From NCBI GenBank assembly GCA_016779945.1, contig JADHMR010000004.1:1-58332 (forward strand): a stretch of 58,332 nucleotides of DNA, given 5' to 3'. A program made the translations under genes and the position numbers. Shown piece after piece: positions 3,541 through 50,681 of the stretch (its first letter is position 1; each line of letters opens with the position of its first letter). The notes beneath the pieces were generated by a model that was not told where the DNA came from, did not search any database, and worked only from the letters and a program-made list of their open reading frames with translations. The DNA is from Bacteroidia bacterium. GTDB lineage: Bacteria > Bacteroidota > Bacteroidia > NS11-12g > UBA9320.

Positions 3541-3542
3541 TT

Positions 3543-14455: not shown

Positions 14456-14502
14456 TAATTATCAATTAAATATATATCTTGCACTTACTAATACTATTAA
14501 AA

Positions 14503-16194
14503 ATGAAAAAACAATACTTAATTTTTACCCTATTATTTTCTTTTTTAGCTACGGCTTCCCTAGCTCAAAAAAGATACATTGATCCCATCTACAGTGATGC
14601 GGATATCGAAGTGACAAGTGATGTTAAATACGCAACGAACATCTCATTTTTGCTTTCAAAAACTTCAAACCAAGCTCAAGTCATTGCAGATCTTACTGCT
14701 ATTAAAACTGCATTAGCAACTGGGCAACCGATTCCTAAAGCCTATTTCGACCCAAGAGATGCCTCTTCAGATATTAAGGTTGAAAATCTTGAAATGGACG
14801 TCTATCGTGCAAAAAGCGATGTAGATTCTAAAACAGACAGGCCAGTTGTAATCTATCTACACACTGGAAACTTTTTACCACCGGTAATTAATGGTTCTCC
14901 TTGTGGTGTCAAAACAGATAGTTCAGCTATAGTTTTATGTACTGAATGGGCCAAAAGAGGATATGTTGCTGTTTCTATGGAATATCGTGGTGGTTGGAAT
15001 CCATTAGCTGGTACAGAAGAAGCACGTAAAGGTCAATTATTAAATGCGGTTTACAGAGCTATTCATGACGTAAAGCAAGGTGTTTCTGTCATACGAACTG
15101 AAGCTGCTGGTTCAAACACGTATGGAATGGATGCAAGTAATATCACTTTGTATGGTGAAGGTACCGGAGGATATGTTGCTTTGGGATATTTAACTCTTGA
15201 TAAATACACCGAAATGGAATTACCCAAGTTTATTAACCCAATATCTAATAAATCATATATTGACACTGCTCAAGTTGGTCTAATTGACGGTTCTAGAGGT
15301 TTGTTAAACCTTTACCAATCACCAAAAACTGATGTAACCGTTCAAGCAGTAGTTAATGCAGGAGGCGCATTGGCCGATACATCTTGGCTGAATGCTGGTG
15401 ATGCTCCAATGATTACCTTCCAAGCAGTTAGAGATCCTTTTGCTCCTTTTAATGAGGGAATTGTTGTTGTTCCAGTTACAAATGGAAATGTTGTAGAAGT
15501 TCAGGGTGGTAACTTATTCATCCAAAAAGCTAACGCAATTGGTAATAATGATGCCATTAAAAATATGCCTGCTGACGATGAATACAACAAAAAAGCAAGA
15601 TCACACTATGGTAATACAATAGACTATATCTACCCTGCTCCTGGAGATAAAATGACTATTAATAATGATGTAGAAGGTTTATTCCCAATTATTAGACCAA
15701 TTACAGATGATTTATACAATAACAGATCTGGACCTTGGCAATGGTGGGATCCAGAATCTCCATATGCTACAGCAGAGGTTAGCCCGGATGATCTTCCAGG
15801 TGTAACTGTTCACATGGCATCATTACCAGGTAACCCAGACATGGGTCCTGAAAAAGGCAGAACATTTATTGATACTATTATGGGCTACATGTGTCCAAGA
15901 ATTGCTGTTATCAATGGTGACTACACCGTTGATCAACTATCTGTCGATGATAAGTTACCAAGTAATGCAGCCAATATTTATCCTAACCCTGCTAAGAATG
16001 AAATCACAATCTCTGTAGACAATCAGTTCAATGTTCAGTCTATTCGATTAATGGATATTACAGGCAGAGAGGTAAAAAACATTACAGCAAACAATATTGT
16101 CCGAATCAATGTTTCTGACCTCCAAACAGGTTATTACATGATTAATATTCAAACATCAGAGGGTCTTATATCTTCTAAGTTGATTAAAGAATAA
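14503..16194 (+). CDS. T9SS-exported alpha/beta-hydrolase-fold protein with replaced catalytic motifs (probable pseudo-esterase)
   Basis: Signal peptide MKKQYLIFTLLFSFLATASLAQ. Esterase-like core (PVVIYLHTGNF, VAVSMEYRGGWNP, ITLYGEGTGGYVAL). C-terminal Por/T9SS sorting domain (IYPNPAKNEITISV...GYYMINIQT). No GxSxG motif anywhere in the protein. Confidence 0.75.
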   Translation: MKKQYLIFTLLFSFLATASLAQKRYIDPIYSDADIEVTSDVKYATNISFLLSKTSNQAQVIADLTAIKTALATGQPIPKAYFDPRDASSDIKVENLEMDVYRAKSDVDSKTDRPVVIYLHTGNFLPPVINGSPCGVKTDSSAIVLCTEWAKRGYVAVSMEYRGGWNPLAGTEEARKGQLLNAVYRAIHDVKQGVSVIRTEAAGSNTYGMDASNITLYGEGTGGYVALGYLTLDKYTEMELPKFINPISNKSYIDTAQVGLIDGSRGLLNLYQSPKTDVTVQAVVNAGGALADTSWLNAGDAPMITFQAVRDPFAPFNEGIVVVPVTNGNVVEVQGGNLFIQKANAIGNNDAIKNMPADDEYNKKARSHYGNTIDYIYPAPGDKMTINNDVEGLFPIIRPITDDLYNNRSGPWQWWDPESPYATAEVSPDDLPGVTVHMASLPGNPDMGPEKGRTFIDTIMGYMCPRIAVINGDYTVDQLSVDDKLPSNAANIYPNPAKNEITISVDNQFNVQSIRLMDITGREVKNITANNIVRINVSDLQTGYYMINIQTSEGLISSKLIKE

Positions 16195-21962: not shown

Positions 21963-22476
21963 TTTAATCTTAATAAGTCTGTTTATACTGGTATCTTGTC
22001 AAGAGAATAAAATTCCTTCTAATTTTAAAAAATTACTATCCCAGCATAAATATACCCTAGTTATGTTTCTAGCTCCAGACTGCCCGTTATGTCATACCCT
22101 GTCAACACCCTTTTCAAAGTTGAATGAAAAATACCCAAATATGCAAGGTATTGGTATAATTAGTGGCAACTATTACTCGGCTATGGAAATTAACCATTTT
22201 GCAACTGAAACAGCGTTTAAGCCTGCTATTTTTAGAGATAATTCATATCAGATTGCTCGTCAATTGAATGCTACGGTAACTCCCGAATTTTATATATTAG
22301 ATTCTACAGGTAACATATTATACCAAGGTATGATGGATGACCGAATAGAGCGATTGGGAAGCTACAAACAACAATGGAAAAACAATTACTTGGAGGATGC
22401 TATTCTATCCGTCAGAAATAATTTGAAACCAAAAATTGAGAGAACAACGCCAATTGGTTGTAGCTTAGAATATTAG
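21949..22476 (+). CDS. Thioredoxin-fold lipoprotein (TlpA/redoxin-like, CPLC motif)
   Basis: Lipoprotein signal MKNTSLILISLFILVSC and active-site-like APDCPLCH. The start (ATG 21943 or 21949) lies inside the 3' end of the kinase gene, giving a 14-20 nt overlap. Confidence 0.7.
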   Translation: MKNTSLILISLFILVSCQENKIPSNFKKLLSQHKYTLVMFLAPDCPLCHTLSTPFSKLNEKYPNMQGIGIISGNYYSAMEINHFATETAFKPAIFRDNSYQIARQLNATVTPEFYILDSTGNILYQGMMDDRIERLGSYKQQWKNNYLEDAILSVRNNLKPKIERTTPIGCSLEY

Positions 22477-23411
22477 ATAGAGGGTTGATAAGAATCAATA
22501 TATCTCGACTTTTTTTCAGCATATATATCCTCTATTTTAATCAAAATCATGGTTTCTTCAACATCACCAAAATACTGATTGTGAACCGTACCGAATGAAC
22601 GCATAGTCGGTGACAAACTCATGTAATTATTAATTAATGGAGGTATATTTTCACCGCGGTCTCTGACAAAATTATTTAATAATTTGTGCCCCTGTTTAAA
22701 ATCTAGTCCAACTAAATTTTCTTTAAATTCTTCGATATCAGAAGAAATACTGACTGCTTCAACGGGTGATATAAGCCCGTCTGGATCATTAAAAAAGTAA
22801 TTCAGAAAATACATTAGAGCATCTCTAGCTTCTTTATTGTAGCTTGAGTATAGTGTTACTTTACCACTGTAGTATTTTATGTGCGGATTATCAACAACAA
22901 TTGATCCAAGACCGTCCCAAAGGTTATCCAAAGCAAATATTCCTCGACGAGAAATATTTGATGGCTGAAAGTTAGGCTGAACCCAACTTCTTCCAAGTTC
23001 AACAGTATACGGCAAATAGTTTTTTTTGAATTGATCTGAATAGTTAAAATAACGTTGAGTTGCTAGCTCTAACGGTTCAGTATCTATGATTTTAGAACAA
23101 TCTATAAATCGATATCCTCCAATAATTTCCTTTGACTCTGGAGCCCACACAATAAGTTGATTGTAGCAATTTTCACTCGTATCATATTGGTCAATATCAA
23201 TTGACTGTCCAGTTCCACCGCCAGCACTTGCAAATGTCAACTCACGCAACCTTCCAATTTCATGCATCACATTTGGACTATTATGATGGTTAATAATGTA
23301 AATCTCATTACTCCCTTTATTTGTAGTGCGAATGAAACGGTCTTTTGTAAGTTCCTTTTGAATTAAATCCAACGGTACTGGAGGTGATATGTAATCCAAA
23401 TTGGGGCTCAT
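22473..23411 (-). CDS. GNAT-fold N-acyltransferase of the OlsB/GlsB (hemolysin-like) family: N-acyl amino acid lipid synthase
   Basis: 312 aa. Size and N-terminal pattern (EIGRLRELTFASAGGGTG) match OlsB/GlsB-like proteins. ATGA overlap with the upstream acyltransferase gene. Confidence 0.6.
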   Translation of the reverse strand: MSPNLDYISPPVPLDLIQKELTKDRFIRTTNKGSNEIYIINHHNSPNVMHEIGRLRELTFASAGGGTGQSIDIDQYDTSENCYNQLIVWAPESKEIIGGYRFIDCSKIIDTEPLELATQRYFNYSDQFKKNYLPYTVELGRSWVQPNFQPSNISRRGIFALDNLWDGLGSIVVDNPHIKYYSGKVTLYSSYNKEARDALMYFLNYFFNDPDGLISPVEAVSISSDIEEFKENLVGLDFKQGHKLLNNFVRDRGENIPPLINNYMSLSPTMRSFGTVHNQYFGDVEETMILIKIEDIYAEKKSRYIDSYQPSI

Positions 23412-24229
23412 GCTTTGTCTTTTAAATTAAATGCAACATCTTTTATAAATGCTGCCCATTCAATATCTTTTCGAATGGTTGTATCAAGTATCTCAGGCTG
23501 AATAGCTTCTCCAAATATAATTTTAATTGATGTATTTCTTTGTTTAAATAATTCATTTACTAAAAAGAGCATCTCAATATTTGTCTTTATACCCAAAAAC
23601 TCTCTTAGTCTACTTAACCGGTAAAAAAAAGGCGAAAGTTCTCCCTGAATATGGACGGGCACAATAGGCACCTTATATTTTCTAGCCCTTGTTACGAATG
23701 TCTTTTTCCATTCTAAATCTTTTACTACACCTTTTTTCTTCCTACTTACAAATCCAGAAGGAAAGATCACCACTGCTTCATTATTTGAGAATACATTATC
23801 AATATTTTTTAAAGACTGTGAAGCCGTACTTCCGTGTTTATTTACACCTACAACAATGTCTCTCATAGGTTGTAAGTTTAATAAAATATCGTTCACAATG
23901 AATTTAATATCAGATCTGTATTTAGAAAACTGATCCACAAATCCTAGTGCATCGAAACCACCTAAAGGGTGATTGGATGCGAAGATTACACCCCCAGTTT
24001 TTGGTGCATTTTCAATACCAATAATTTTAACATCAATATTAAATTCTTGAATTGCATTTTTACAAAACTGAATACCAGACACTCCTTGGTTATCTGCAAT
24101 AATTCGGTTTACATCGTCCTCCCATAAAATTTTTTTTAGATAATTGATGATAAACCGAGGGAGTCTTTTTAATAACCTTGGATTCTTATCAAGGATGATT
24201 TTTTCTACATCTATAAATTTACCAACCAT
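23408..24229 (-). CDS. Lysophospholipid/1-acylglycerol-3-phosphate-type O-acyltransferase (OlsA/GlsA-like)
   Basis: 273 aa. HX4D motif NHPLGGFD and FPSGFVSR motif. Confidence 0.75.
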   Translation of the reverse strand: MVGKFIDVEKIILDKNPRLLKRLPRFIINYLKKILWEDDVNRIIADNQGVSGIQFCKNAIQEFNIDVKIIGIENAPKTGGVIFASNHPLGGFDALGFVDQFSKYRSDIKFIVNDILLNLQPMRDIVVGVNKHGSTASQSLKNIDNVFSNNEAVVIFPSGFVSRKKKGVVKDLEWKKTFVTRARKYKVPIVPVHIQGELSPFFYRLSRLREFLGIKTNIEMLFLVNELFKQRNTSIKIIFGEAIQPEILDTTIRKDIEWAAFIKDVAFNLKDKA

Positions 24230-25712: not shown

Positions 25713-26354
25713 ATGTATTTAAGCAAAAAAGATATCCAGTCTATGCAAAAAGTTGAACGACTCAACTTGATAAATTCTCTCTCTGGTATCAAACCTGCTA
25801 ATCTAATTGGGACTAAAGATAAAAACGGGAACGAGAATTTAGCAATTTTTAGCTCGGTTATTCATCTTGGTAGCAATCCTGCTCTTTTTGGATTTATTTT
25901 AAGGCCTCAGGGGGATGTTCGTCGTCACACGCATGAAAATATAATATCTACAGAAATGTATACGATCAATTTTGTAACAACAGATTTTATGAAAAATGCT
26001 CATTACACTTCAGCCAAATTTGATGCAAAAACTAACGAGTTCGAGAAAAGTAAACTTACTCCTTCATATATAAAAGAATTTGATGCTCCATTTGTGAAAG
26101 AAAGCCCAATAAAAATGGGGCTTCGTTTCGTTGAGGAGATACCTATCAAATCTAATGGGACTACACTTATGGTTGGTCAAGTTGAACATATTATAATGCC
26201 CGATGAAAGCATGCATGATAATGGTCATCTAGACCTTGGATTTTTTAACGTAGCTGGAATTTCTGGCCTAAACACCTACTATAGCTTAACAAAAAAAGAT
26301 CGATTCCCTTACGTTCGTAAAAACTTTAAACTTGAGGATTTAAAAATAGATTAA
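25713..26354 (+). CDS. Flavin reductase-like (FMN-binding split-barrel) protein
   Basis: 213 aa. IKPANLIGTKDKNGNENLAIFSSVIHLGSNPALFGF is typical of the flavin reductase-like domain. No signal peptide. Confidence 0.65.
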   Translation: MYLSKKDIQSMQKVERLNLINSLSGIKPANLIGTKDKNGNENLAIFSSVIHLGSNPALFGFILRPQGDVRRHTHENIISTEMYTINFVTTDFMKNAHYTSAKFDAKTNEFEKSKLTPSYIKEFDAPFVKESPIKMGLRFVEEIPIKSNGTTLMVGQVEHIIMPDESMHDNGHLDLGFFNVAGISGLNTYYSLTKKDRFPYVRKNFKLEDLKID

Positions 26355-28732
26355 TTCCCAAAAATATACAGAAGCTTAACATAAGCATTTCTCGGTTGAC
26401 CTGTTATAATCCCTGGACCTGGATAACTAAGAGCCCTTCGTGTAAAATAAGTACTATTGAAGATATTATTTACAGATAGCTTTAATTGAAAATGCTTTTG
26501 ATCATAGCCCATAGAATAATCGTGAATCACAAAAGAAGGTACAATTCCACGAGTTGCGTCACTAACCAAAATACTATTGTTTGCATCTGTATACTGCATA
26601 TCTTGATAGTTAAACTGATATGAAGCATACCATTTTTTGTAACGAATACTAACTCCAGTTCTAAGTAGATGCGGGATTACATATTCTAGTTTTTTACCTT
26701 CAAACGATGAGAGTCCTTGAGAATATCTGCCATCAATATAGCTGTAATTTATAAATGACTCAATCTGCCAACTTGAATTATCCAATTTCATTAGATCTGA
26801 TAGACTAAGCCTAACATACGATTCGATCCCACGGCTATATGCCCTTCCAATGTTTGTTCTGAATGCCGTCAACTGTTTTGCTCCATTTTGCTCAATAACA
26901 GTCTCAGAAATTCCAATCCTGTCGTGATAACTTAGGTAAAATAAACTGAGGTCAAACCAACAAATGTTAGGAATTAGATATCCTCTAAATGTGATATCTG
27001 TATTAAATCCTGACTCATCCTTTAGATTAGAATCAACTCTTAAATTAGGATTAGAAATACTCATATCACTGAAATTAATGGAGCGATAATTTTGGGTAAT
27101 ATTTGCTAAAATTTCAACTTGTTTAGTTTTTTTACTCAACCCAAGTCCTAGAAGTGGGAATTGTCTAAAATAACTACGCGAAACCGAGACAGTATCTTCA
27201 AAAATTAAACGACCCCCAGAAATTAATCTGTTTTTATAAAAACCATTAGCATTTGTTTCAATTGCCTCCAATCTTATCCCAGGTATAATAGAAATTTGAT
27301 AGGGTAAACGAAAAATATTTTCAGCAAATAAGGCCGCATTATAGCCAGGATGCTGGTAATCAGACACACCTGCACTTTCCGGATTGATCAAATTAAAATC
27401 TGCATCGTCTCCTCCCTTTGCAAATCCTTGTCTGCTCCAATTAAACCCTCGATATGCTCTTACACCAACCAAAAAGGTAGATGGTTGTGTAATGAACGTG
27501 TAGTGTCTTAAAAACCGACTTTCAATACCCCAATTATTAAATTCTCCAATTATCAAATCGCGTTCTCTGTTGGCGTCTGGTCTATTAGGTCTACTGAGAT
27601 CTCCTACTGATTTTCTGCTCGCATCCAAAGTGAAAAACCGAACATTTAATCTTCGTTGATTAGAGAATCTTTTATTCCAAATTAATGCGTATAAATTCCA
27701 GTCTACATCAAACCAATTTCGCAATCGTTTAGCTTGATATGGATTCATTTCAAACTCAGTATCTGTTAACCCCCCAGGCTGTTGAGCTAAATACTTCATT
27801 CGAGTATATTGAAATTTAATTTTAGACTTTTCAGAGATTTGATAGGCTAAAGAAACGTAACCGGTATTTTGGTGAAATTTTGCATTAGGTAAAAATCCCT
27901 CTCCTTGTTTTCTTTGAAAAAATCCATAGTAACTCCACTTATTTTTAGTCCCACCTATACTCGTAAAGCTATTCAAAAACTCAAAAGATCCACCCGTTAA
28001 ACTTTGTCTAACAACCAATTGAGATTCTTCTTTTTCCTTCAATTGGTAATCTAAAAGTCCACCAAAATGTGGACCACTCTGCAGTGCTGCTGCTCCTCTT
28101 ACAAAACGAATTTGCTCAATTGCCTCCGCTGGAGGGACATAATAAGACTCTGGATATCCAAGTGCATCTGCACTAATATCGTATCCATTCTGCCGCGTAT
28201 TTAAATTACTTGTCCTATTTGGATTTAAACCCCTAGTACCGATATTTATTTGGAGGCCTGAAGCATCATTTTCCCATATGTTTAATCCGGGTATCCGATT
28301 GAAAAGTTGACGGGCATTATTATTCGCTAAATTCATAGTCCGCGAATCTGGTGCTATCAATTCCGTTTTTTTAGCTGCAAAAATTTCAGTCCCAATGACA
28401 TTAGTTAAACTGGTCTTTGCTCGATTACCTAATACATTTACTCGATTTAACTGAACCCATAACTCAGGCACTTCGATGATTAATGAATTAATGCCTTTCT
28501 TTAAATAAATTTTATCTTTAATCTCCTGTTTTTCCAGCTGCAAACGATAGTAGTAATCCCCCGGTTGAAATCCGTATATCGAAGTATTTTGGGCATTAAT
28601 TAAATAAATACTATCCCCTAAATAAAAAGTAGCATTCGTATTTTTCAACCCGTATATTTTTAATAGTAAGGATGATTGAGCCTGACATGTAAAGCTTAAA
28701 AAGACAAATGCTATGTATACCAAATGTCTCAT
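26351..28732 (-). CDS. TonB-dependent receptor (last gene of the DUF4856-imelysin-HTTM operon)
   Basis: 793 aa. Signal peptide ending TCQAQS. Plug motifs (RIPGLNIWENDASGLQINIGTRGLNPNRTS). Long beta-barrel ending LLYIFGN. ATGA overlap with the HTTM gene. Confidence 0.9.
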   Translation of the reverse strand: MRHLVYIAFVFLSFTCQAQSSLLLKIYGLKNTNATFYLGDSIYLINAQNTSIYGFQPGDYYYRLQLEKQEIKDKIYLKKGINSLIIEVPELWVQLNRVNVLGNRAKTSLTNVIGTEIFAAKKTELIAPDSRTMNLANNNARQLFNRIPGLNIWENDASGLQINIGTRGLNPNRTSNLNTRQNGYDISADALGYPESYYVPPAEAIEQIRFVRGAAALQSGPHFGGLLDYQLKEKEESQLVVRQSLTGGSFEFLNSFTSIGGTKNKWSYYGFFQRKQGEGFLPNAKFHQNTGYVSLAYQISEKSKIKFQYTRMKYLAQQPGGLTDTEFEMNPYQAKRLRNWFDVDWNLYALIWNKRFSNQRRLNVRFFTLDASRKSVGDLSRPNRPDANRERDLIIGEFNNWGIESRFLRHYTFITQPSTFLVGVRAYRGFNWSRQGFAKGGDDADFNLINPESAGVSDYQHPGYNAALFAENIFRLPYQISIIPGIRLEAIETNANGFYKNRLISGGRLIFEDTVSVSRSYFRQFPLLGLGLSKKTKQVEILANITQNYRSINFSDMSISNPNLRVDSNLKDESGFNTDITFRGYLIPNICWFDLSLFYLSYHDRIGISETVIEQNGAKQLTAFRTNIGRAYSRGIESYVRLSLSDLMKLDNSSWQIESFINYSYIDGRYSQGLSSFEGKKLEYVIPHLLRTGVSIRYKKWYASYQFNYQDMQYTDANNSILVSDATRGIVPSFVIHDYSMGYDQKHFQLKLSVNNIFNSTYFTRRALSYPGPGIITGQPRNAYVKLLYIFGN

Positions 28733-30036
28733 TTTAATTCTCTAGCAATAATGTATGGTTTATTCCCCCAATTATCACTCTCATTCAATAAATCAACATT
28801 TGGATCAATATATCTTCGAGAAGTTCTTCCATTGATTGTTATGAACGAATTTACGAATACCTGAGGTTCAGAAACGAGGTCTTTATTTTTTTGGGCAATA
28901 TGCTGAGCAAATTGAAGCATAAAATCGGGTTGGATAGCCATTTGTTTCTCTTGAAATGGTGTAAGATATTGAGCATTATCAATTTCCATGGATCGATTTT
29001 TATTTTTATCTTTTAAAACAAATGTTGCAACCCCTGCCTTTTCTACCAGCATCACCCTCCATCCAAAACGATAGCCAATTTCTGTCACAAACGTATTCCC
29101 TGAATAAGCCAGATGACGAAGAGGGAGAATAATCTGAATTAAAAAATAAATCCCTAGCAAAGGAGTTAATATTTTTTTATGATTGGCAGCTACAGTTTGC
29201 TCATTTTTATCTGTAAAACGCTTATATAGCCTCTGATGGAATTGATCACTAAAAAAGATTAGATTACTGGTTATCATCAACCATGGAAATATGCCAATAT
29301 TAAATAAAACATATGTTGCAAGATGAAATATTACCACTGTAGCATACGCATATGGTCTTGTCTTTTTCCAACATAAAAAATAAACAATAGTGCAATCGTA
29401 TAAAGCTCCAACCCAACTAAAAATAAAAGCTAGCTCAGTGTATTTGAATAATCCTCCAATGATGGGAAAATCATGATGTTCAGGCAACCAAATACGAAGA
29501 GGCAAAGCATTAAAAATCCAATCTGAATTTAGCTTAGCTATACCTGCATAGGTGTATACTATCCCAATTTGAAGGATAATTATCCAAATAAAGAACTGTG
29601 GAATTGTCTTACTTGGCTTTACACTACCCCTCCACACGTCCAGTGAAAAAGCACGATTTGCTGGTGTTAGTAAAAGTAAAAATCCAAGCAAGCAAACCAA
29701 ATAATGATGGTTGAGATAGTTCGTAGCATCCACCAACTCGAAATAAGTAAATATACATAGAAAAATAACAAGAGCCCATCTATAAAAAAGACCAATTGCA
29801 ACGAATAATGCAGTCAGTACCATCACAAAAAATAAAGGCTTTATAAAATATTGAGGGCACATCTCTACCCATTCAAAATTGTAATATTTGAAGAAAAAAT
29901 CTGGCTGAACGTATAGCTTCTCAATCCATCCTTGCATCCAAAATCGAATGGAACTAAAAAACATCAATCCACCGAATAAAATTCGGAATGTAACCAAAGG
30001 ATATATACTTCTTTGTGTGCTAATAACAGACCACAT
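28729..30036 (-). CDS. HTTM domain membrane protein (vitamin K-dependent gamma-carboxylase-like fold)
   Basis: 435 aa. N-terminal LVTFRILFGGLMFFSSIRFW...YVQPDFFFKYYNFEW and multiple TM helices are typical of the HTTM domain. Soluble C-terminal ~130 aa. Confidence 0.75.
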   Translation of the reverse strand: MWSVISTQRSIYPLVTFRILFGGLMFFSSIRFWMQGWIEKLYVQPDFFFKYYNFEWVEMCPQYFIKPLFFVMVLTALFVAIGLFYRWALVIFLCIFTYFELVDATNYLNHHYLVCLLGFLLLLTPANRAFSLDVWRGSVKPSKTIPQFFIWIIILQIGIVYTYAGIAKLNSDWIFNALPLRIWLPEHHDFPIIGGLFKYTELAFIFSWVGALYDCTIVYFLCWKKTRPYAYATVVIFHLATYVLFNIGIFPWLMITSNLIFFSDQFHQRLYKRFTDKNEQTVAANHKKILTPLLGIYFLIQIILPLRHLAYSGNTFVTEIGYRFGWRVMLVEKAGVATFVLKDKNKNRSMEIDNAQYLTPFQEKQMAIQPDFMLQFAQHIAQKNKDLVSEPQVFVNSFITINGRTSRRYIDPNVDLLNESDNWGNKPYIIARELK

Positions 30037-30050
30037 AAAACGGGTTAGTT

Positions 30051-31181
30051 TTAATCAGAATCACTCGGATTATCTACATAGGTAATGGGTATACACATCA
30101 CACTTGGCATATCGCTTTTAAGGTAGATTACTTGTTCAGATAAGGCATTATATGCATTAATCACGTTTTCTTGATCATCATCAACACTCTCATGAAGTGT
30201 CTCTTGTATCGCATTGATTTTTTCAAGTGAAATATCAAACTGATTGATGATAACATCAGCCAGACCTACGCCATTTTTTTTTGCTCCAATTGTTCTCAAA
30301 ATTTCAGCTAAGCCTTCGCCCTCTGTTCCGTCTTGCTTTATTCCTAAAAAAAGATTCTTAGTTGATTGTATTGCTGTTTTTGCCCATTCAAGTGATTTTC
30401 CACTATAGTAGGCTTCTACCTCTTTCGGATTCGTAAATCCAAGTGACAAAACACCACTTGGCACTCCTATTTTATCTCGTTTAATATACTCATAGTCTCT
30501 ATTTAAGGCATTAACAATTAGATTTATAGACTGGCCGTCTGTAGTTCCCGTATTTTGTTTGAACTCATTCGCATAAATAATCCAATTTTCGAGAACAATA
30601 TCTAATTTTTTGTTCATATCCTCCAGTGCTGCTTTGGCATAAACACCATATGTACCGTTTGTGTTGAACGAGTCTATGATGCCTTCATCATTGGATGAAA
30701 GTCCATATAACAAAAAATCGAGAAGAGGTAGGCCTTTATTGTATTCATCAGGAGAAGAAAAATCCATTTTACGGTCTTGAATATCCAATAAAACTTTGGA
30801 TACATTCAATGGGAAATTATTGAATGAACTTACCCAAAAAACATCTTCACCTGGACCAAATGAAAAAGCACTTACTGTCTGCCAAAGCTTGTATGTCGCC
30901 AAATATTCTGTTCTGAATCGAGTCAGATTAACTAACTGTGGATCATCAATAAAATTCACTCCTTCTCGATAGCATTCATCAAATTGTCTATCAAATGATT
31001 GAAGTCTGGGCAAAATGATGTCATCTGCATAATTGGTGAGAAGAGGAGAAATGTCGTATTCTGATATACAGCTGGGGGTAAATTTTTGATTATTATCCTT
31101 ACAAGAGGATAAAAATCCAAAAGTAAAAAGTATGCTAACAGCTACAAAAAAATTATATTTAGATGTAATGTAAGTTATCAT
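30051..31181 (-). CDS. Imelysin-like (peptidase M75-like) lipoprotein
   Basis: Start taken as ATG 31181 (MITYITSKYNFFVAVSILFTFGFLSSC lipobox). Helical two-domain protein of imelysin size. Family call is from memory of neighbourhood and composition, so moderate. Confidence 0.6.
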   Translation of the reverse strand: MITYITSKYNFFVAVSILFTFGFLSSCKDNNQKFTPSCISEYDISPLLTNYADDIILPRLQSFDRQFDECYREGVNFIDDPQLVNLTRFRTEYLATYKLWQTVSAFSFGPGEDVFWVSSFNNFPLNVSKVLLDIQDRKMDFSSPDEYNKGLPLLDFLLYGLSSNDEGIIDSFNTNGTYGVYAKAALEDMNKKLDIVLENWIIYANEFKQNTGTTDGQSINLIVNALNRDYEYIKRDKIGVPSGVLSLGFTNPKEVEAYYSGKSLEWAKTAIQSTKNLFLGIKQDGTEGEGLAEILRTIGAKKNGVGLADVIINQFDISLEKINAIQETLHESVDDDQENVINAYNALSEQVIYLKSDMPSVMCIPITYVDNPSDSD

Positions 31182-31191
31182 TTGTATGCTC

Positions 31192-32319
31192 CTATAATTG
31201 GTCTTTGATATCATCCAATCCGTAAATTGATGATAATTTGATTTTAGCATCATTAAGTCCTTTAGCATCGATCGAATAAAAATCCAATTCTAACAGGGAT
31301 TCTGAAGCTCCTAGATTGAATAAAATCTCTGATAAGTCTGAGGAGTTGATGGTTTTGTACGAATTGAATTTTAGAGCATATGCAAAACCATATGCCTCTG
31401 CTAACGCATGACCCTTAATACAAACGTCATTCATATTTCCTAATGTTTCGTTGATGTAATGAATAGCGTTTGCAGCAGCTAATTTTTCAATAGCTAATCT
31501 TACATTGATAATTGCAGCATCTCTATTAACCATATTCTTATTAGTGATAGCTGCTCTACCTGCTATAAAAGCTTCCATTAATTCGTGATTGCATGCCAAT
31601 AATTGGTTTCGTTTATTGGCATACGACCCCCAAAATATCAAATTATCCGTATTCGTAGGAAAATCTAATGGTACACCCAAATATCCAAATGCCTCATCCC
31701 AATGATGTTCCATTGCCGTTCCTTTGCCCGGTATCACCTCTTCATTGTCTGCATTTATTTTAGTGTCTCCTGTGTATACCTCATTAATCTGATATGCGAT
31801 AAAAGCTCCCATCAATCCTTTTTCAAAAACCTGAGCTTCATCTACACCATTCGCATTTAACAAATATTGTTTAGAATTATCGTTTGAGGAAACGACCCCT
31901 GAAATACCTTTAATATGTGCTTGTGATGAATTACTTGAATTAGCTATACTTTTCAAAAGACTTTCAAAATCTGACTGTAAAGGTTCAAAGGTTTTATTCT
32001 TAATCTGCTTAGAATCCTCGTATAGACCCGCCCAACCAGCTTTTTCTGAATCATTAGTAAACATGGCTACTACTTTTTCGATGTTTAGTGTATTGCCTGA
32101 TACATTTACTGTTTTGAGATAGTTCTTGATTTCTAGTAATTGGTTTAACCGCTGGGTTTGTCCGGTATATGATACATTTTCAAACGCAGTATATGTGTCT
32201 GGTATCCTATAACTGTTATCTGTAATAACAATCGGCAACTCTTTCTTACAAGAATGTAGAGTCACAGAAATAAGGGCTATACAGCCCATTAAAACTCTTA
32301 ATTTGATTTTCATTTTCAT
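31192..32319 (-). CDS. DUF4856-like lipoprotein
   Basis: Start at ATG 32319 or 32313 (MKMKIKLRVLMGCIALISVTLHSC lipobox). The MEHHWDEAFGYLGVP motif matches my memory of DUF4856. The track start at 32376 lies upstream of the predicted promoter. Confidence 0.55.
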   Translation of the reverse strand: MKMKIKLRVLMGCIALISVTLHSCKKELPIVITDNSYRIPDTYTAFENVSYTGQTQRLNQLLEIKNYLKTVNVSGNTLNIEKVVAMFTNDSEKAGWAGLYEDSKQIKNKTFEPLQSDFESLLKSIANSSNSSQAHIKGISGVVSSNDNSKQYLLNANGVDEAQVFEKGLMGAFIAYQINEVYTGDTKINADNEEVIPGKGTAMEHHWDEAFGYLGVPLDFPTNTDNLIFWGSYANKRNQLLACNHELMEAFIAGRAAITNKNMVNRDAAIINVRLAIEKLAAANAIHYINETLGNMNDVCIKGHALAEAYGFAYALKFNSYKTINSSDLSEILFNLGASESLLELDFYSIDAKGLNDAKIKLSSIYGLDDIKDQL

Positions 32320-32363
32320 TTTTTTTGTTGGAGAATTACTTTGAATCCTACCTAATAATGGTA

Positions 32364-32371
32364 CAAATTTA
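32364..32371 (-). promoter_or_regulatory. -7 box TAAATTTG upstream of the DUF4856-imelysin-HTTM-TonB receptor operon
   Basis: Exact TAnnTTTG on the minus strand, 44 nt upstream of ATG 32319. Confidence 0.4.
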
Positions 32372-32418
32372 AACACTATTTTTAATTGGTCTAAATAAGT
32401 TTAATAAATTTTTAACAT

Positions 32419-35762: not shown

Positions 35763-37064
35763 ATTATTGACTCTTCTGTTTCCATATCACAACAACCTCT
35801 TGCCGAACGCGTAAGACCAAGAAGTTTAGACGAACTTGTTGGTCAACGTCATATCATTGGTAATGGTAAGCCCCTCCGAAAAACTATCGAAAACGGGAGC
35901 ATGTATTCATGCATATTTTGGGGTCCTCCAGGAGTTGGAAAAACTACCATAGCTCAAATTATTTCAAACACCCTTAAAACTCCATTTTTTCAATTGAGTG
36001 CAATAAATGCTGTGGTAAAAGACGTCCGTGAAGCCATCGAAAAGGCGAAAAAAACAAAATTTTTAGGTAGTGGAGGAAGTGCTATTTTATTTATTGATGA
36101 AATTCATCGGTTTAATAAAAGTCAACAAGACGCTCTCCTTGGGGCAGTTGAGCAAGGTATCATCACATTGATTGGTGCCACTACAGAAAATCCAAGTTTT
36201 GAGGTAAATGCAGCTCTTCTCTCGCGATGTGAAGTATTTGTTCTCAAGGCCTTAGAACTCGAGGATTTAAAGCAACTCGTAGTGCAAGCTTGTAAAAATG
36301 ATCAGCTACTTAGTCAAAAAGAAATTAAGATAAATGAGTGGGAATCGCTCACTAAAATCAGCGGTGGTGATGGCCGAAAGCTTCTTAATGCACTTGAGAT
36401 TATAGTAAACTACTCTGGTAAAAAAAAGGTCCAAATCAATAATGCCCTTGTGGATGAGGCCATTCAACAACGGCTAGCTCATTTCGACAAAGGAGGTGAA
36501 CAACACTATGACATCATATCTGCCTTTATCAAATCAATTCGAGGAAGCGACCCAAATGCTGCAGTTTACTATTTGGCTCGAATGATTGCTGGTGGAGAAG
36601 ACCCCAAATTTATTGCACGTAGGCTGATAATAGCTGCGAGTGAGGATATCGGAAATGCGAATCCTAACGCACTACTTTTGGCTAATCAATGTTTTAGTGC
36701 AGTTAACCATGTAGGTTATCCGGAGTGCAGAATCATCCTCTCACAAACTGCCATTTATCTAGCAACCAGTCCAAAAAGTAATGCCGCATATATGGCCATT
36801 AACAATGCTCAAGCGTTAGTTAAAGAAACGGGTGACCTTCCTATTCCTCTCAGTCTCCGTAATGCACCTACTCAACTCATGAAAGACCTAAATTATGGCA
36901 AAGGATATCCCTATGCTCATGACTTCCCCAATAATTTTGCTTTCCACGAATTTTTACCCGATTCGATTGCAAATACAGCATTATACAACCCAGGAAATAA
37001 TTCTGCAGAAAACAAGGCAAGAGAAAGACTCAAAGAACTCTGGAAGAAAAAGTATGGATATTGA
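35763..37064 (+). CDS. rarA: Replication-associated recombination protein A (AAA+ ATPase); start codon unresolved
   Basis: Walker [20 protein letters not shown], and the MgsA C-terminal domain. The first ATG is at 35901, only 9 codons before Walker A. The same frame is open from 35751 and encodes the conserved [24 protein letters not shown]. There is no in-frame ATG, GTG or TTG upstream, so ATT 35763 is proposed as the start. Confidence 0.8.
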
Positions 37065-37065
37065 A

Positions 37066-38310
37066 TTAGTCTAAAATAATCAATTGGACTTTTTCAATTT
37101 TTTGTTCAATAGCTTCAACAATTTTAATTTCAAACTGATCGATGATAAAGATTTCGCCAGTAGGCGGTATCTCTTCTAAATTGGCAAGTATGAATCCCCC
37201 AAGTGTTTCATATTCTCCATCAGGAATATCTAAGTTATATTTTTCATTAAGATAATCAACCTCAAGTTTAGCATTAAGGACTAGCTGTCCACCATTAGTA
37301 ACCAACTCATTATCTTCAACTTCGTCATGTTCATCTTCTATCTCTCCAAAGATTTCTTCCATAATATCTTCTACAGTAATAATACCTGCAGTACCACCAT
37401 ATTCATCTACCACTAAAGCAATACTTCGTTGAGATTTGGAAAACTCATTAAGCATCTCATTGGCACTTTTAGATTCATTTGTAATAAGTATAGGTAACAA
37501 AACTGACTGAATGCTTTTTGGCTTTTTATGTAGGTCTAAGTGATGTACATATCCGATGATATGATCAATATTTTCTTTATAAACAAGAATCTTGGAATGA
37601 CGTGTATCAATGAATAGTTTTTCTAAATCATCAATCGAATTTTCAATATCAATTGCAATAATTTCAGTTCGAGGTACAAGGCAATCTCGTACTTCAACAT
37701 TTCCAAAATCCAATGCATTCTTCAGAATTTCAGTATCTACATCAGGCTCTTCTCCATCAGGTGGCAGATGAGATGACTGTGAGATAAAATGATCAAGGTC
37801 AATCTTACTAAAAGCAGGTGATTCATTGGCAAACTCCATTTTGAAAATTTTAACCAACATAAAATTGCTCAACCATATCACAAATTGAACAATCGGCCAC
37901 AGAACTACATAAAAAAATTGGAATGGATATACCAATACACTCAATATACCGCTGGGATTAAGTCTAAATAGAGCTTTTGGTAAAAACTCAGCAGTAATTA
38001 AAACAATACCGGTTGATATGAACGTTGCTAGAATCAATGCTGGAAATGATCCTAAATACGCAAATTGGGGTCTAAATATCTCTTCCATCGTTACTCCGTA
38101 AACCACCAATGCTATATTGTTACCAACTAATATGGTGCTGATAAATTTGGAAGGAGATTTGATGTAGTTTGAGCACAATTTTGCCCAATGTTTCCCTTGG
38201 TTACTTTTGAGCTCTATGCGTAATTTATTTACAGAGATAAATGCAATCTCAAGACCGGAGAAAAAAGCTGACAAAAGCAGCATCAAAATTACAAGTGTAA
38301 TGGGTGACAT
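37066..38310 (-). CDS. CNNM/hemolysin-type membrane protein (DUF21-CBS pair-CorC_HlyC; GldE-like)
   Basis: 414 aa. Four N-terminal TM helices, a CBS pair, and a C-terminal transporter-associated domain. Confidence 0.8.
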   Translation of the reverse strand: MSPITLVILMLLLSAFFSGLEIAFISVNKLRIELKSNQGKHWAKLCSNYIKSPSKFISTILVGNNIALVVYGVTMEEIFRPQFAYLGSFPALILATFISTGIVLITAEFLPKALFRLNPSGILSVLVYPFQFFYVVLWPIVQFVIWLSNFMLVKIFKMEFANESPAFSKIDLDHFISQSSHLPPDGEEPDVDTEILKNALDFGNVEVRDCLVPRTEIIAIDIENSIDDLEKLFIDTRHSKILVYKENIDHIIGYVHHLDLHKKPKSIQSVLLPILITNESKSANEMLNEFSKSQRSIALVVDEYGGTAGIITVEDIMEEIFGEIEDEHDEVEDNELVTNGGQLVLNAKLEVDYLNEKYNLDIPDGEYETLGGFILANLEEIPPTGEIFIIDQFEIKIVEAIEQKIEKVQLIILD

Positions 38311-39079: not shown

Positions 39080-39406
39080 TTACACCGAAAAACTTTCCCC
39101 ACAACCACAAGTTCTGTTGGCATTGGGATTGTTAAATTGGAAACCTTTTCCGTTCAGACCGTCAGTGAAATCGAGTTCGGTGCCACAGAGGTATAAAAAG
39201 CTTTTCATATCGCAAACGATTTTATAACCGTTGCTCTCAAACTCTTGATCACCCTCTTGACTTTCGTTATCAAAATCCATTTTATAACTCAAACCAGAAC
39301 ACCCACCTCCAACTACTGAAACTCGAATAAAATAACCATTATTCAATCCTTCAGTCTCCATCAGACTGTTAACTTGTTGTGCCGCTCTTTCTGAAACTGT
39401 AATCAT
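39080..39406 (-). CDS. iscA: Iron-sulfur cluster insertion/assembly protein (IscA/HesB family)
   Basis: 108 aa. GGCSGLSY and the C-terminal CGCGESF motif. Confidence 0.9.
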   Translation of the reverse strand: MITVSERAAQQVNSLMETEGLNNGYFIRVSVVGGGCSGLSYKMDFDNESQEGDQEFESNGYKIVCDMKSFLYLCGTELDFTDGLNGKGFQFNNPNANRTCGCGESFSV

Positions 39407-39417
39407 GTCTTAGTTAA

Positions 39418-39834
39418 TTAATAGTGTTTTTTGTTATCCTCAATAGGTTCTAATCCTTGCTTCTGACGATAATCATTAATTGCCATTTTTATAGCATCTT
39501 CAGCTAACACAGAGCAATGAATTTTTACGGGAGGTAATGCTAACTCTTCAACAATTTCCATATTATCAATTTCCATAGCAGAATCTACCGTTTTGCCTTT
39601 AAGCCACTCCGTAGCGAGTGAGGAAGAAGCAATAGCAGAGCCACATCCAAAAGTTTTGAATTTTGCATCCTTGATAATTCCTGTTGCATCATCTACATCG
39701 ATTTGAAGACGCATCACGTCTCCACATTCAGGTGCACCAACAAGGCCGGTACCAACGCTTTTAGAATCTTTGTCTAACTTACCAATGTTTCTTGGATTTT
39801 GGTAATGATCGATTACTTTTTTTGAATATGCCAT
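39418..39834 (-). CDS. iscU: Fe-S cluster assembly scaffold IscU
   Basis: 138 aa. GAPECGDVMRLQI, FKTFGCGSAIASSS and LPPVKIHCS motifs. Confidence 0.95.
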   Translation of the reverse strand: MAYSKKVIDHYQNPRNIGKLDKDSKSVGTGLVGAPECGDVMRLQIDVDDATGIIKDAKFKTFGCGSAIASSSLATEWLKGKTVDSAMEIDNMEIVEELALPPVKIHCSVLAEDAIKMAINDYRQKQGLEPIEDNKKHY

Positions 39835-39863: not shown

Positions 39864-41075
39864 TTAATGTTCTGCCCATTCGATGGTTTTCAAATCAATA
39901 CCATCTTGAAACATTTCCCAGAGTGGGCTCATCTCTCGGAGTTTATTTACTGCTGTTTTTACATGATTTATTGCGAAATCTACTTCTTCTTCAGTTGTAA
40001 ATCTTCCCAATCCAAAACGTAGTGAAGAATGTGCTAATTCGTCGTCTAATCCTAACGATTTGAGAACATAACTTGGCTCTAATGAAGCACTTGTACAAGC
40101 ACTCCCACTAGATACTGCAATATCTTTAGTTCCCATCATAAGCCCTTCTCCTTCAACAAATTTAAATGAAATATTAGCTACATGAGGTAGACGATGTGCT
40201 GGATTTCCATTCACATAGGCTTCCTCGATGGTAAGTAATTCTTTTTCTAATTTATCTCTCAAAGCACTCAGTCTGACCGCTTCTTGTTCCATTTCTTGCC
40301 CACATAATTCGCATGCTTTTCCAAATCCTACGATTCCTGGCACGTTAAGGGTACCGCTTCGCATTCCACGCTCATGTCCGCCACCATCCATTTGGCTAGT
40401 TACCTTTACCCTTGGATTTTTTCTTCGAACATACAAAGCACCGACTCCTTTTGGGCCATACATTTTGTGTGCAGTAAAACTCAATAGATCAATACCATCA
40501 GCTATCACATCCACAGGAATTTTTCCTACAGCTTGAGTTGCATCAGTGTGGAAGAGTAAGTTATTTTTCTTTGCAATTGCCGAAATGGCTTTGATATCTT
40601 GAATTACTCCAATCTCATTATTTCCATACATAATGGTAATGAGGATTGTTTTATCAGTAATCGCAGCTTCTAATTCATCAAGATTGATAAGTCCATCTTC
40701 GTTTGGAGAGAGGTAAGTTACCTCTGCACCCATTTTTTCTACTTTTTTACACGCATCTAATACTGCTTTGTGCTCAGTAGTTACGGTAATCATGTGATTA
40801 CCTTGGGAGCCGTACATTTCGTATACTCCTTTGATGGCTAAGTTATTTGCTTCAGTAGCTCCTGAAGTGAAGATAATTTCTTTGGAAGTACTCCCAATTA
40901 AGTGAGCTACTTGATCTCGAGCATCATCAACTGCTTTTTCGGCATTCCACCCAAAGCTGTGATTTCTACTAGCTGCATTACCAAATTGTTCATTAAAAAA
41001 TGGCAACATCGACTCTAATACCCTTGGATCCATGGGTGTTGTCGAATTATTATCGAGGTATATGGGTAGGTTCAT
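39864..41075 (-). CDS. iscS: Cysteine desulfurase IscS
   Basis: 403 aa. [10 protein letters not shown], the PLP lysine region [12 protein letters not shown], and the active-site loop SSGSACTS. Confidence 0.95.
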
Positions 41076-41108
41076 TACGCTTATTCTTATTTAGACTTAT
41101 TCTAACTG

Positions 41109-49376: not shown

Positions 49377-50681
49377 TTACAGTTTGAATACAATTTTTTC
49401 TGAGAGAATCTCTTTGCCTTGTTTTAATACTTTACATATGTACATTCCCTTTAAAGCACCAAGCCCCGATATTATCTGTGTAGAGAGTGGTTCAAGGTTG
49501 GATTTAAATACTGTTTGTCCTAACAAATTGGTGATTTCAATTTGATAATTGGCTTCTTCATCCAATTCTGATAGTGTCAATGTCAAATCCTCAACAACTG
49601 GATTGGGATAAATTAAAGTATACTTGGCTGGCTCAACTGGAGGGTCCGGATATCGAACAGTAGCTATACCCGACCTAAATAAGGTGAGATTTGAACGCAT
49701 CTGTTCTACTTGTTGTTCTGTAAACATGTTTTGGCAAACACCGTCCGAATAATCCATGTAATTCTCAATCATGTCTGGTAAATCACCTGGATTATTGATG
49801 CATGAATTCTGCCCAATGTTACAACCATTTGTGGCTGCACGGCTATTCGGTGTGTCGTCCATAAAATCATCTACATTACATCCTTGATTTCTAGAACCGT
49901 CGCCCCAAATGTGACGAAGCCCAAGATAATGCCCGACTTCGTGTATTAGTGTTTTTGAACCAGTAGAGAGTGATTGAGGATTGTCTTGGCCTACTACTTT
50001 ATAGTGAACAACTACACCTTGTTTGTTACTGGTGCTAAATGAGTTTGAATTCCAATTTTCTGCGTTAGTTGGTGGATAGGCATAACCGAGTAAGGCATCA
50101 AAACCATTTGCTGACAAGTCACAAATCCAAATATTTAAGTATTTGTCAGGGTCCCATACACGACTTCCGTATAATTCTTCTTTTACACGATCTGCATTAG
50201 AAAGGTTGATAGGGAACTGACCAAATGTTGGAAGTGATGACGACTTCCGGACTATACCACTCGTAGGATTTCCAAAAGGGTCTAATTTTGCTAACTCAAA
50301 CTCTATTCCTGCATCCGCTGCTACAGGCAAGAATATTTCACGAGTATCAATAGTATCTGCATTTTTACGTCGAAAACAAGCGTTCAATTCCTCAAGCTGT
50401 GATAAAATATACTTGTCGTCAAGATTTTGAACAGTATTGTTATACACAACATGGAAAACAACTTGAATGGTATAAATTGTGTCCTTCTCTTTTTTAGACT
50501 TGAGGCTAGAATATCGTTTCGCGTCAAAGAAGGCATCTTCTATATTCTTCAAAGCTCCCGAATTTTGTTGATTTAAGAGTTTTATGTAGTCATTTGTGGC
50601 ACAAGGTATTGTTTGATTTTGGGCTGACAAACTCCCAAAAATCAACACAAACAATACAAATAAAAACGCTTTATTAATCAT
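49377..50681 (-). CDS. Secreted zinc metalloprotease, M43 (pappalysin/cytophagalysin-like) with T9SS C-terminal domain
   Basis: Signal peptide. HEVGHYLGLRHIWGD extended zincin motif. C-terminal IYPNPVVEDLTLTL...GMYICKV sorting domain. Confidence 0.85.
   Translation of the reverse strand: MINKAFLFVLFVLIFGSLSAQNQTIPCATNDYIKLLNQQNSGALKNIEDAFFDAKRYSSLKSKKEKDTIYTIQVVFHVVYNNTVQNLDDKYILSQLEELNACFRRKNADTIDTREIFLPVAADAGIEFELAKLDPFGNPTSGIVRKSSSLPTFGQFPINLSNADRVKEELYGSRVWDPDKYLNIWICDLSANGFDALLGYAYPPTNAENWNSNSFSTSNKQGVVVHYKVVGQDNPQSLSTGSKTLIHEVGHYLGLRHIWGDGSRNQGCNVDDFMDDTPNSRAATNGCNIGQNSCINNPGDLPDMIENYMDYSDGVCQNMFTEQQVEQMRSNLTLFRSGIATVRYPDPPVEPAKYTLIYPNPVVEDLTLTLSELDEEANYQIEITNLLGQTVFKSNLEPLSTQIISGLGALKGMYICKVLKQGKEILSEKIVFKL

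Follow-up and report, generated by a model that had tools for sequence, protein, structure and literature searches.

The window analyzed here is a 58,332-nt stretch of DNA from a Bacteroidia bacterium (contig JADHMR010000004.1, positions 1 to 58,332), and our subject is a run of four minus-strand genes within it that encode, in order, a DUF4856 lipoprotein, an imelysin-like lipoprotein, an HTTM membrane protein related to the vitamin K-dependent carboxylase GGCX, and a TonB-dependent outer-membrane receptor (Table 1). The genes are separated by a 10-nt gap (31182-31191) and a 14-nt gap (30037-30050), and the last two overlap by 4 nt (28729-28732); gene starts were chosen to give lipoprotein signal peptides and to fit homologues. 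A first-pass annotation, made from the letters alone, had proposed this layout, and its coordinates, gaps and overlap were reproduced from the sequence. The −7 box that it cited was read on the minus strand as TAAATTTG, and the lipoprotein signals (...LHSC and ...LSSC) and the quoted HTTM peptides were found in the translations. Pfam profiles recovered DUF4856, Peptidase_M75 (PF09375), HTTM (PF05090) with VKGC_lumenal_dom (PF22777) and the receptor Plug domain, each window protein far exceeding the curated cut-off. As the reading frames, the families and the −7 element were all recovered, the description of the operon was accurate.

Table 1. The four-gene operon, its control elements and other features of the window (positions are those of the window).
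Feature	Position	Strand	Match or remark
Gene 1, DUF4856 lipoprotein, 375 aa	31192..32319	-	Signal ...TLHSC; Pfam DUF4856 1.8e-34
Gene 2, imelysin-like (Peptidase_M75) lipoprotein, 376 aa	30051..31181	-	Signal ...FLSSC; Pfam Peptidase_M75 1.8e-26
Gene 3, HTTM plus first part of VKGC lumenal (periplasmic) domain, 435 aa	28729..30036	-	Pfam HTTM 6.1e-72, VKGC_lumenal_dom 8.2e-46
Gene 4, TonB-dependent outer-membrane receptor, 793 aa	26351..28732	-	Signal peptide and N-terminal extension; Pfam Plug 4.2e-07
Bacteroidota-type −7 element TAAATTTG	32364..32371	-	Direct reading (32371..32364); position kept in L001
Fur-box-like 19-bp palindrome	32378..32396	plus strand ATTTTTAATTGGTCTAAAT; operon strand ATTTAGACCAATTAAAAAT	Directly 5′ of −7 element
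iscS-iscU-iscA-like operon	39864-41075, 39418-39834, 39080-39406	-	Aminotran_5, NifU_N, Fe-S_biosyn
Fur-box-like palindrome	41089-41107	both	2 mismatches on both strands
Weaker Fur-box match	37058-37076		3 mismatches
MgsA-like AAA ATPase	35901-37064		Convergent with CNNM/CorC gene
CNNM/CorC	37066-38310		Convergent with MgsA-like gene
Flavin-reductase-like gene	25713-26354	+	Flavin_Reduct; stop overlaps receptor stop by 4 nt
Exported protein, 452 aa	24320-25678	+	CxxCH haem-binding motif
Acyltransferase pair	22473-24229	-	Acetyltransf_5; GlsA (NCBIfam 7.3e-95, above cut-off)
SusC-like TonB-dependent receptor, 954 aa, then 571-aa protein	11591-16194	+	CarboxypepD_reg N-terminal domain in receptor
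M43 peptidase with type IX secretion sorting domain	49377-50681

A profile built from HTTM homologues was searched in one-genome-per-species contigs, giving 580 confirmed loci of which the best 80 were retained (L001-L080), and synteny was scored by tblastn with the window proteins. Under a strict test on the 62 loci with enough flanking DNA for four genes, DUF4856, imelysin, HTTM and receptor genes keep the window's order and a shared strand in 50, an arrangement far beyond chance. At least three further loci carry a gene at the first position that is a divergent DUF4856 by Pfam, and a few of the loci compared are without the lipoproteins or without the receptor. Nearly all of the 80 loci studied carry the cassette, and its carriers are aerobic Bacteroidota and relatives in the Fibrobacterota-Chlorobiota-Bacteroidota (FCB) group: Saprospiraceae, Chitinophagales, Sphingobacteriales, Rhodothermaceae, Cytophagales (Pontibacter, Hymenobacter, Fulvivirga, Marivirga), Flavobacteriales (Aquimarina, Allomuricauda, Kriegella) and Balneolales (Fodinibius, Gracilimonas). 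Median spacers are 79, 14 and −4 nt, the last being the overlap of the HTTM and receptor genes.

Clustering of all open reading frames of these loci yielded no fifth conserved gene, with neither a regulator nor an inner-membrane permease among the clusters and no reductase or biosynthetic genes conserved alongside the cassette; EfeB or a di-haem oxidoreductase is absent from the window and from the 80 loci. Conserved order, tight spacing and the absence of a fifth conserved gene thus uphold the earlier proposals that the four genes are syntenic in related genomes and form one unit. The same annotation had pointed to a flavin-reductase-like gene that ends convergently at 26354. That end is as described, and we rejected this gene and the neighboring CxxCH protein as parts of the system, since L001, the closest relative, is the only other locus in which they adjoin the cassette. 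From its gene content and spacing, the cassette behaves as a self-contained unit with apparent translational coupling.

The candidate promoter of the operon contains a −7 element of the Bacteroidota type, for which we take TAnnTTTG to be the consensus. The adjoining palindrome, which the promoter elements flank and which stands 58 nt 5′ of the gene 1 ATG, agrees with the Fur-box consensus of Riemerella, ATTTAGAATTATTCTAAAT, in 15 of its 19 positions, and together the box and the −7 element are the best-conserved intergenic block in an alignment of the window with L001. With up to three mismatches allowed, the Fur-box pattern occurs 4 times in the window, where 0.6 occurrences would be expected. 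Among 60 related loci, 59 have a site scoring 14/19 or better in the 200 nt that precede the first gene; upstream scores average 16.0 against 12.1 for shuffled sequence, of which 10% reach 14. Sites scoring at least 16/19 are strongly placed, 55 of the 63 in 1.07 Mb of locus DNA lying in upstream regions that make up 1.1% of the sequence. Because the box recurs upstream of the first gene across loci, Fur-type, iron-responsive control appears to be a conserved property of the cassette and is predicted for this organism as well. We regard it as a firm prediction that all four genes belong to a single conserved transcription unit, with a Fur-type operator overlapping its promoter. Rfam searches gave no riboswitch or small RNA in the leader and the window held no tRNAs, and scans for σ70 promoters and terminators returned counts at or below shuffle expectation, which are uninformative.

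Expression data from another species bear on this prediction. An RNA-seq study of a fur mutant of Riemerella anatipestifer (RA-YM) derived the consensus used here and reports that purified Fur bound motif fragments from four other promoters. Its Table 4 lists the consecutive genes RAYM_09779-09794 as elevated under iron restriction (2.1-3.1), with annotations of TonB-dependent receptor (09779), 'vitamin K-dependent gamma-carboxylase', 'lipoprotein imelysin' (09789) and hypothetical protein (09794). The cluster is classed there as Fur-regulated, and the authors do not treat it as a system. The first-pass suggestion of a link to iron is thus strengthened by the palindrome here and in 59 of 60 loci and by the iron-restriction response of the matching Riemerella cluster.

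Three further Fur-box-like sites were seen. The best such palindrome in the window stands 14 nt 5′ of the iscS-iscU-iscA-like operon, which suggests that Fe-S cluster assembly may be under the same regulator as the cassette. The weaker match in Table 1 falls between two convergent genes and, for that reason, probably arose by chance. In one Saprospiraceae locus (L047), where the HTTM and receptor genes are about 1.1 kb apart, a second site (12337-12355, 16/19) lies just 5′ of the receptor, suggesting that the receptor may have come under independent iron control after the operon split.

The product of gene 3 aligns with human GGCX chains (phmmer 7e-28) in two parts, the membrane domain and ~150 residues at the start of the lumenal domain. 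Residue roles for catalysis, the Glu pocket and the naphthoquinol pocket were taken from a 2025 cryo-electron microscopy study (PMC12589487) and mapped through the GGCX alignment onto 81 cassette sequences. The catalytic base K218 of human GGCX corresponds to K168 (codon 29533-29535) and is invariant or nearly so, and the Glu-holding residues N159, H160 and Y395 correspond to N109/H110 (codons 29707-29712) and Y322 and are invariant. Equally conserved to the catalytic base, that is, invariant or nearly so, are the naphthoquinol pocket (V210, W223, F286, F294, F299 and M402, here V160, W173, F237, F245, F250 and M329) and the tail-tunnel residues A214 and G259. The backbone contacts of the Glu pocket differ, N158 being replaced by Leu and R436 by Gln or Met, and the Y395 equivalent is variable in more distant bacterial homologues. 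Homology predicts an N-terminus in the cytoplasm and a periplasmic location for the active site and the C-terminal domain. By these conserved positions, the gene 3 product is predicted to be a GGCX-type enzyme that is competent in catalysis and recognizes its substrate differently. Taken with the operator and the receptor, the operon is very probably a cassette for TonB-dependent uptake under iron control whose GGCX homologue is catalytically competent.

The HTTM family is large (1,475 clusters at 50% identity, E up to 1e-30), and the statement in the first-pass annotation that its bacterial members have no assigned role is out of date. SdpB is needed for maturation of the SdpC toxin. MloH is reported to be a vitamin K-type carboxylase of an aspartyl residue in malonomycin biosynthesis. 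The quinone-dependent step proposed in the same annotation is made plausible by the conserved lysine, Glu-holding residues and naphthoquinol pocket. In one Chitinophagales locus (L056) a YceI-like gene (3488-4147) separates imelysin from HTTM; proteins of this type bind polyisoprenoids or quinones in the periplasm, and the insertion hints at quinone handling.

The AlphaFold2 model of gene 2 (predicted local distance difference test score, pLDDT, 87) matches IrpA-like 4ECG (E 3e-09, template modelling score 0.66), ICMP 7XRX and IPPA 3PF0, as well as EfeM, EfeO and Algp7, with PDB 7Q1G and 7WGU among the matches. Judged by this model, the protein is a genuine imelysin-like protein of two four-helix-bundle domains. 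The His of the GxHxxE motif is present in the ICMP, IrpA and EfeO types and absent in the IPPA type. It is absent here as well, with Lys at the His position (SGKSLEW in the window against SWHSRDD in PIBO), which assigns gene 2 to the His-less IPPA/PA4372 type described by Xu et al. 2011. The imelysin identity given to it at first pass is therefore sound by profile and by fold, and the EfeO/IrpA type is not the one found.

The C-terminal tail of gene 2 (ITYVDNPSDSD, 30054-30086) is predicted by the model to be flexible. All 74 of the cassette homologues compared end in D-[GS]-D, within an almost invariant pattern (I/V)(T/D)(Y/F)x(D/S)...D-[GS]-D-COOH (window 30054-30092). A tail of this kind could act as a metal loop or a contact with the receptor. 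It could also be an HTTM-specific substrate, an idea weakened by the IPPA of Psychrobacter (3PF0), which also ends ...FNSTDGD and counts against modification of the partner lipoprotein to that extent. The 3PF0 tail query began with six IPPA residues placed there as a seed, of which the tail alignment is independent. The last six residues of 3PF0 are disordered in the crystal. Since IPPA ends likewise, the D-[GS]-D tail is better regarded as a trait of the IPPA branch than of HTTM systems.

Gene 1 belongs clearly to DUF4856 (PF16148, 119.7 bits against a cut-off of 22.3), as do its aligned homologues (34/34), among which no other Pfam family was matched consistently. The homologues share an invariant GxGTxMEHHWDE motif and a second motif, H304...E308. 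Its AlphaFold2 model (pLDDT 93) is all-alpha and gave no fold match in the PDB (best E = 1; EfeM at rank 48, E = 7) or in BFVD, and the sequence found nothing in the PDB beyond chance matches to cytochrome c peroxidase. We rejected the notion that DUF4856 is a diverged imelysin paralogue, as profile-profile comparison aligns signal peptides only and no fold match was found. The NCBIfam model FEA1_rel_lipo (NF038033) matches 11 of the 34 DUF4856 proteins (best 7.4e-07) in the region of the EHHWDE and H...E motifs; the window protein scores 18.5 bits against a cut-off of 250 and so falls outside the family. This weak, recurrent similarity to FEA1-related lipoproteins fits a possible iron-binding role.

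An acidic stretch after the lipid-modified Cys is typical of surface lipoproteins in Bacteroidota. It was counted in at least 45 of 55 DUF4856 proteins and at least 30 of 61 imelysins, both lower bounds, as the lipobox pattern was too strict and missed evident lipoproteins; the two lipoproteins of the window have one acidic residue in this stretch.

The receptor is matched partially by the NCBIfam profiles for FecA (1.2e-22), TonB-siderophore receptors (4.2e-21) and PqqU (1e-09). Residues 137-789 are covered by profiles for FecA, siderophore and haemoglobin receptors, all scoring below their equivalog cut-offs, and the Pfam barrel model was not matched by this protein, whose Plug domain is above cut-off. 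FecA-like transporters and imelysin-like lipoproteins are reported to be abundant together in outer-membrane vesicles of Tenacibaculum. The best PDB sequence matches of the receptor are YncD and PqqU (5e-07), and this is one reason to consider that the cassette may not serve iron at all: the palindrome could belong to another member of the Fur family or to an unrelated regulator, and the cargo could be another metal, a quinone or a cofactor like pyrroloquinoline quinone. The similar palindrome before the isc operon could equally be the site of another regulator, and imelysin and EfeO proteins bind several metals in vitro, to judge from the titles of PDB 5Y4C, 7Q1G and 7WGU. We consider this very improbable, since Riemerella Fur bound the motif fragments and the matching cluster is iron-responsive, FecA and siderophore profiles outscore PqqU by 1e-22 to 1e-09, and DUF4856 is related to a family of iron-assimilation proteins.

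Beyond the cassette, eight HTTM representatives of about 34-40% identity were examined, six of normal length (438-463 aa), and the catalytic residues are preserved in all eight. The gene directly upstream of HTTM is a Peptidase_M75 in five of the six normal-length cases (34-38% identity), with or without a receptor or DUF4856: two loci (L081 and L088) have the imelysin-HTTM pair alone, a third (L087) has in addition a downstream gene resembling a TonB-dependent receptor, and a fourth (L086) has DUF4856 and no adjacent receptor. The fifth, a metagenomic contig (L084, 322-5274), encodes in one tight co-directional block an ICMP-type imelysin, a di-haem oxidoreductase (PF06537), an IPPA-type imelysin ending NDTDGD and an HTTM/VKGC protein, again without an adjacent receptor; HTTM adjoins the IPPA-type copy, not the ICMP-type one. 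The sixth (L089) is without imelysin. As the upstream Peptidase_M75 persists in these distant cases, the constant pair is the IPPA-type imelysin and HTTM. The two remaining representatives are long HTTM/VKGC_lumenal proteins (L082, 7001-9604, 867 aa; L083, 583-2712, 709 aa) fused to or beside TPR and FG-GAP/UnbV_ASPIC domains; they keep the catalytic Lys, Asn and His in a context unlike the iron cassette, which suggests a further role for the HTTM family.

The same loci bear on a role in small-molecule chemistry, in which the receptor would import an organic iron chelate or another compound with carboxylate groups, the HTTM protein would carboxylate it or alter it in some other way in the periplasm and the lipoproteins would bind it. 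MloH, a bacterial orthologue, has a non-ribosomal intermediate as its substrate; the gene 3 product has a truncated version of the GGCX propeptide-binding region; and the receptor resembles FecA, siderophore receptors and PqqU. However, the tightest and widest linkage of HTTM is to imelysin and not to the receptor, which has no adjacent copy in L084 and L086, and the loci have no linked biosynthetic genes. We therefore rate a small-molecule substrate as improbable.

The main rival to modification of the lipoproteins is a redox role, in which HTTM would couple the menaquinol pool to iron, either by Fe(III) reduction for an unlinked permease or by Fe(II) oxidation via an oxygenated quinol. Such a role would match the part of EfeB or the di-haem oxidoreductase in other imelysin systems, imelysins being habitually paired with peroxidase-type enzymes. 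The quinol pocket and the base lysine are conserved, and a deprotonated quinol is, by established chemistry, a good reductant. The cassette has no reductase or permease of its own, a haem-free enzyme might spare iron, and a YceI-like gene lies beside HTTM in one locus. On the other side, L084, the only distant locus to pair a di-haem oxidoreductase with HTTM, holds both together, for which reason we rejected HTTM as a simple stand-in for the oxidoreductase of classical imelysin operons. The equivalents of N159, H160 and Y395, invariant in the cassette family, are unneeded for pure electron transfer, and we know of no HTTM protein that acts on metals. On balance we think a redox role unlikely.

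We favor instead a Fur-repressed, self-contained TonB-dependent iron-acquisition operon in which the GGCX-type enzyme modifies one or both partner lipoproteins, a reading to which we assign a probability of roughly 0.4. DUF4856 and the IPPA-type imelysin would be metal- or ligand-binding components at or near the outer membrane, and the FecA/siderophore-like receptor would bring the substrate into the periplasm. An inner-membrane GGCX-type enzyme with a periplasmic active site would use menaquinol and O2 to modify the imelysin-like lipoprotein encoded directly upstream, and perhaps also DUF4856, during periplasmic transit, much as secretory proteins on their way out are modified by GGCX in animals. 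Carboxyl groups added to Glu or Asp could then create or tune a metal-chelating site of the lipoprotein. To our knowledge, the characterized HTTM proteins GGCX, MloH and SdpB all modify peptides or proteins. Lipoprotein modification is favored because the gene pair is constant and the residues that would hold a substrate carboxylate are preserved, and because the active site faces the compartment that lipoproteins cross and the known HTTM proteins act on peptides or proteins. That the enzyme carboxylates a partner lipoprotein is nonetheless put forward tentatively. The strongest form of the proposal, on which we are rather doubtful, would make this the first bacterial case of vitamin K-dependent protein carboxylation: menaquinol, O2 and CO2 would convert Glu or Asp of imelysin, and perhaps of DUF4856, to malonate-type chelators during export, giving a protein-borne, siderophore-independent iron capture that feeds a dedicated receptor, and possibly reflecting an ancestral role of gamma-carboxylation in bacterial metal capture that preceded its part in the blood clotting of animals.

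Several observations weigh against the favored reading. The gene 3 product ends at about human residue 490 of 758 and so lacks a large part of the propeptide-binding domain; it has no C99-C450 disulfide, Phe and His/Phe/Tyr standing at those positions; and K217 is Ala and R436 Gln or Met. Because of this truncation, the missing disulfide and these replacements, substrate recognition must differ from that of GGCX. A Leptospira orthologue, in work of 2005 attributed to Rishavy, reportedly epoxidized vitamin K with no carboxylation detected. The cassette encodes no inner-membrane permease for entry of iron to the cytoplasm. The Riemerella cluster was equated with the cassette by annotation and gene order, not by sequence, and its fur-mutant ratios are modest (1.4-1.9). 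The GGCX-like gene of Leptospira lies away from the imelysin operon, and its expression falls when iron genes rise. Given separate loci and opposite regulation, we rejected the idea that the Leptospira orthologue is connected to the lruB imelysin operon, and the association of imelysin with HTTM is accordingly not universal.

Other features of the window lie outside the cassette. In the 452-aa CxxCH protein, Haem_bd and the copper type II ascorbate-dependent monooxygenase C-terminal domain were matched weakly, both below threshold. A GNAT-type N-acyltransferase followed by GlsA, a lyso-glycine-lipid O-acyltransferase, is the glycine-lipid synthesis pair typical of Bacteroidota. The 571-aa protein that follows the SusC-like receptor combines an esterase-like BD-FAE domain with a C-terminal sorting domain for type IX secretion, and the M43 peptidase is another protein sorted in this way.

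The cassette makes the function of bacterial GGCX homologues, a question for two decades, directly testable. It ties an intact catalytic center of the HTTM family to two neighboring candidate substrates, a receptor and an iron-responsive operator; the only worked bacterial example known to us lies in an antibiotic pathway. If the lipoproteins are modified, they would represent a new post-translational route to metal binding and give imelysin-like proteins a physiological role; if menaquinol and iron exchange electrons, the enzyme would be a haem-free counterpart of EfeB or the di-haem partners. As marine and soil Bacteroidota commonly carry the cassette, and by annotation so does the poultry pathogen Riemerella anatipestifer, it may be relevant to iron cycling and virulence. 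The parts belong to known families, and receptors and lipoproteins under Fur and imelysin iron systems are already known; their combination with a vitamin K-dependent carboxylase homologue appears to be undescribed. Searches of the open-access literature found neither HTTM together with imelysin nor DUF4856, an absence that is not proof, and within it only the Riemerella fur study names both a gamma-carboxylase and a TonB-dependent receptor, in a table entry.

Like GGCX, gene 3 encodes the HTTM domain and the start of the lumenal domain, with the catalytic base, the Glu-holding residues N159/H160/Y395, the naphthoquinol pocket and an active site predicted on the non-cytoplasmic face, which exported proteins pass. 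In contrast to GGCX, the product is 435 rather than 758 aa, the operon encodes no Gla-domain or propeptide-bearing substrates, and the gene lies in a putatively Fur-controlled uptake operon. MloH, SdpB and the Leptospira vitamin K-dependent carboxylase orthologue share the HTTM fold and give precedent for modification of peptides or proteins, but MloH and SdpB lie in antibiotic and toxin clusters, the Leptospira gene has no imelysin linkage and none of the three is tied to metal uptake.

The imelysin systems PA4370-PA4373 of Pseudomonas aeruginosa, VC1264-1266 of Vibrio cholerae, lruB of Leptospira and EfeUOB are Fur- or iron-regulated, as the cassette is predicted to be, and lruB likewise has a TonB-dependent receptor nearby. 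The outer-membrane imelysin clusters share with the cassette an IPPA/PA4372-type lipoprotein with a ...DGD end, a second lipoprotein with a metal site and the absence of a dedicated permease. The cassette differs from them in having the HTTM/GGCX enzyme and no EfeB or di-haem oxidoreductase, DUF4856 in place of the His-bearing ICMP-type imelysin, and a receptor coupled translationally to the enzyme. FEA1 proteins, which serve iron assimilation in algae, are likewise extracytoplasmic and are induced by low iron; the match of DUF4856 to the FEA1-related lipoproteins (NF038033) is weak and recurrent, far below cut-off. Finally, in the HmuY/HmuR, XusA/XusB, BtuB/BtuG and SusC/SusD systems a TonB-dependent transporter is co-transcribed with lipoproteins that often carry an acidic stretch after the Cys, as do many homologues of the cassette lipoproteins, whereas their lipoproteins belong to other families and they include no inner-membrane modifying enzyme.

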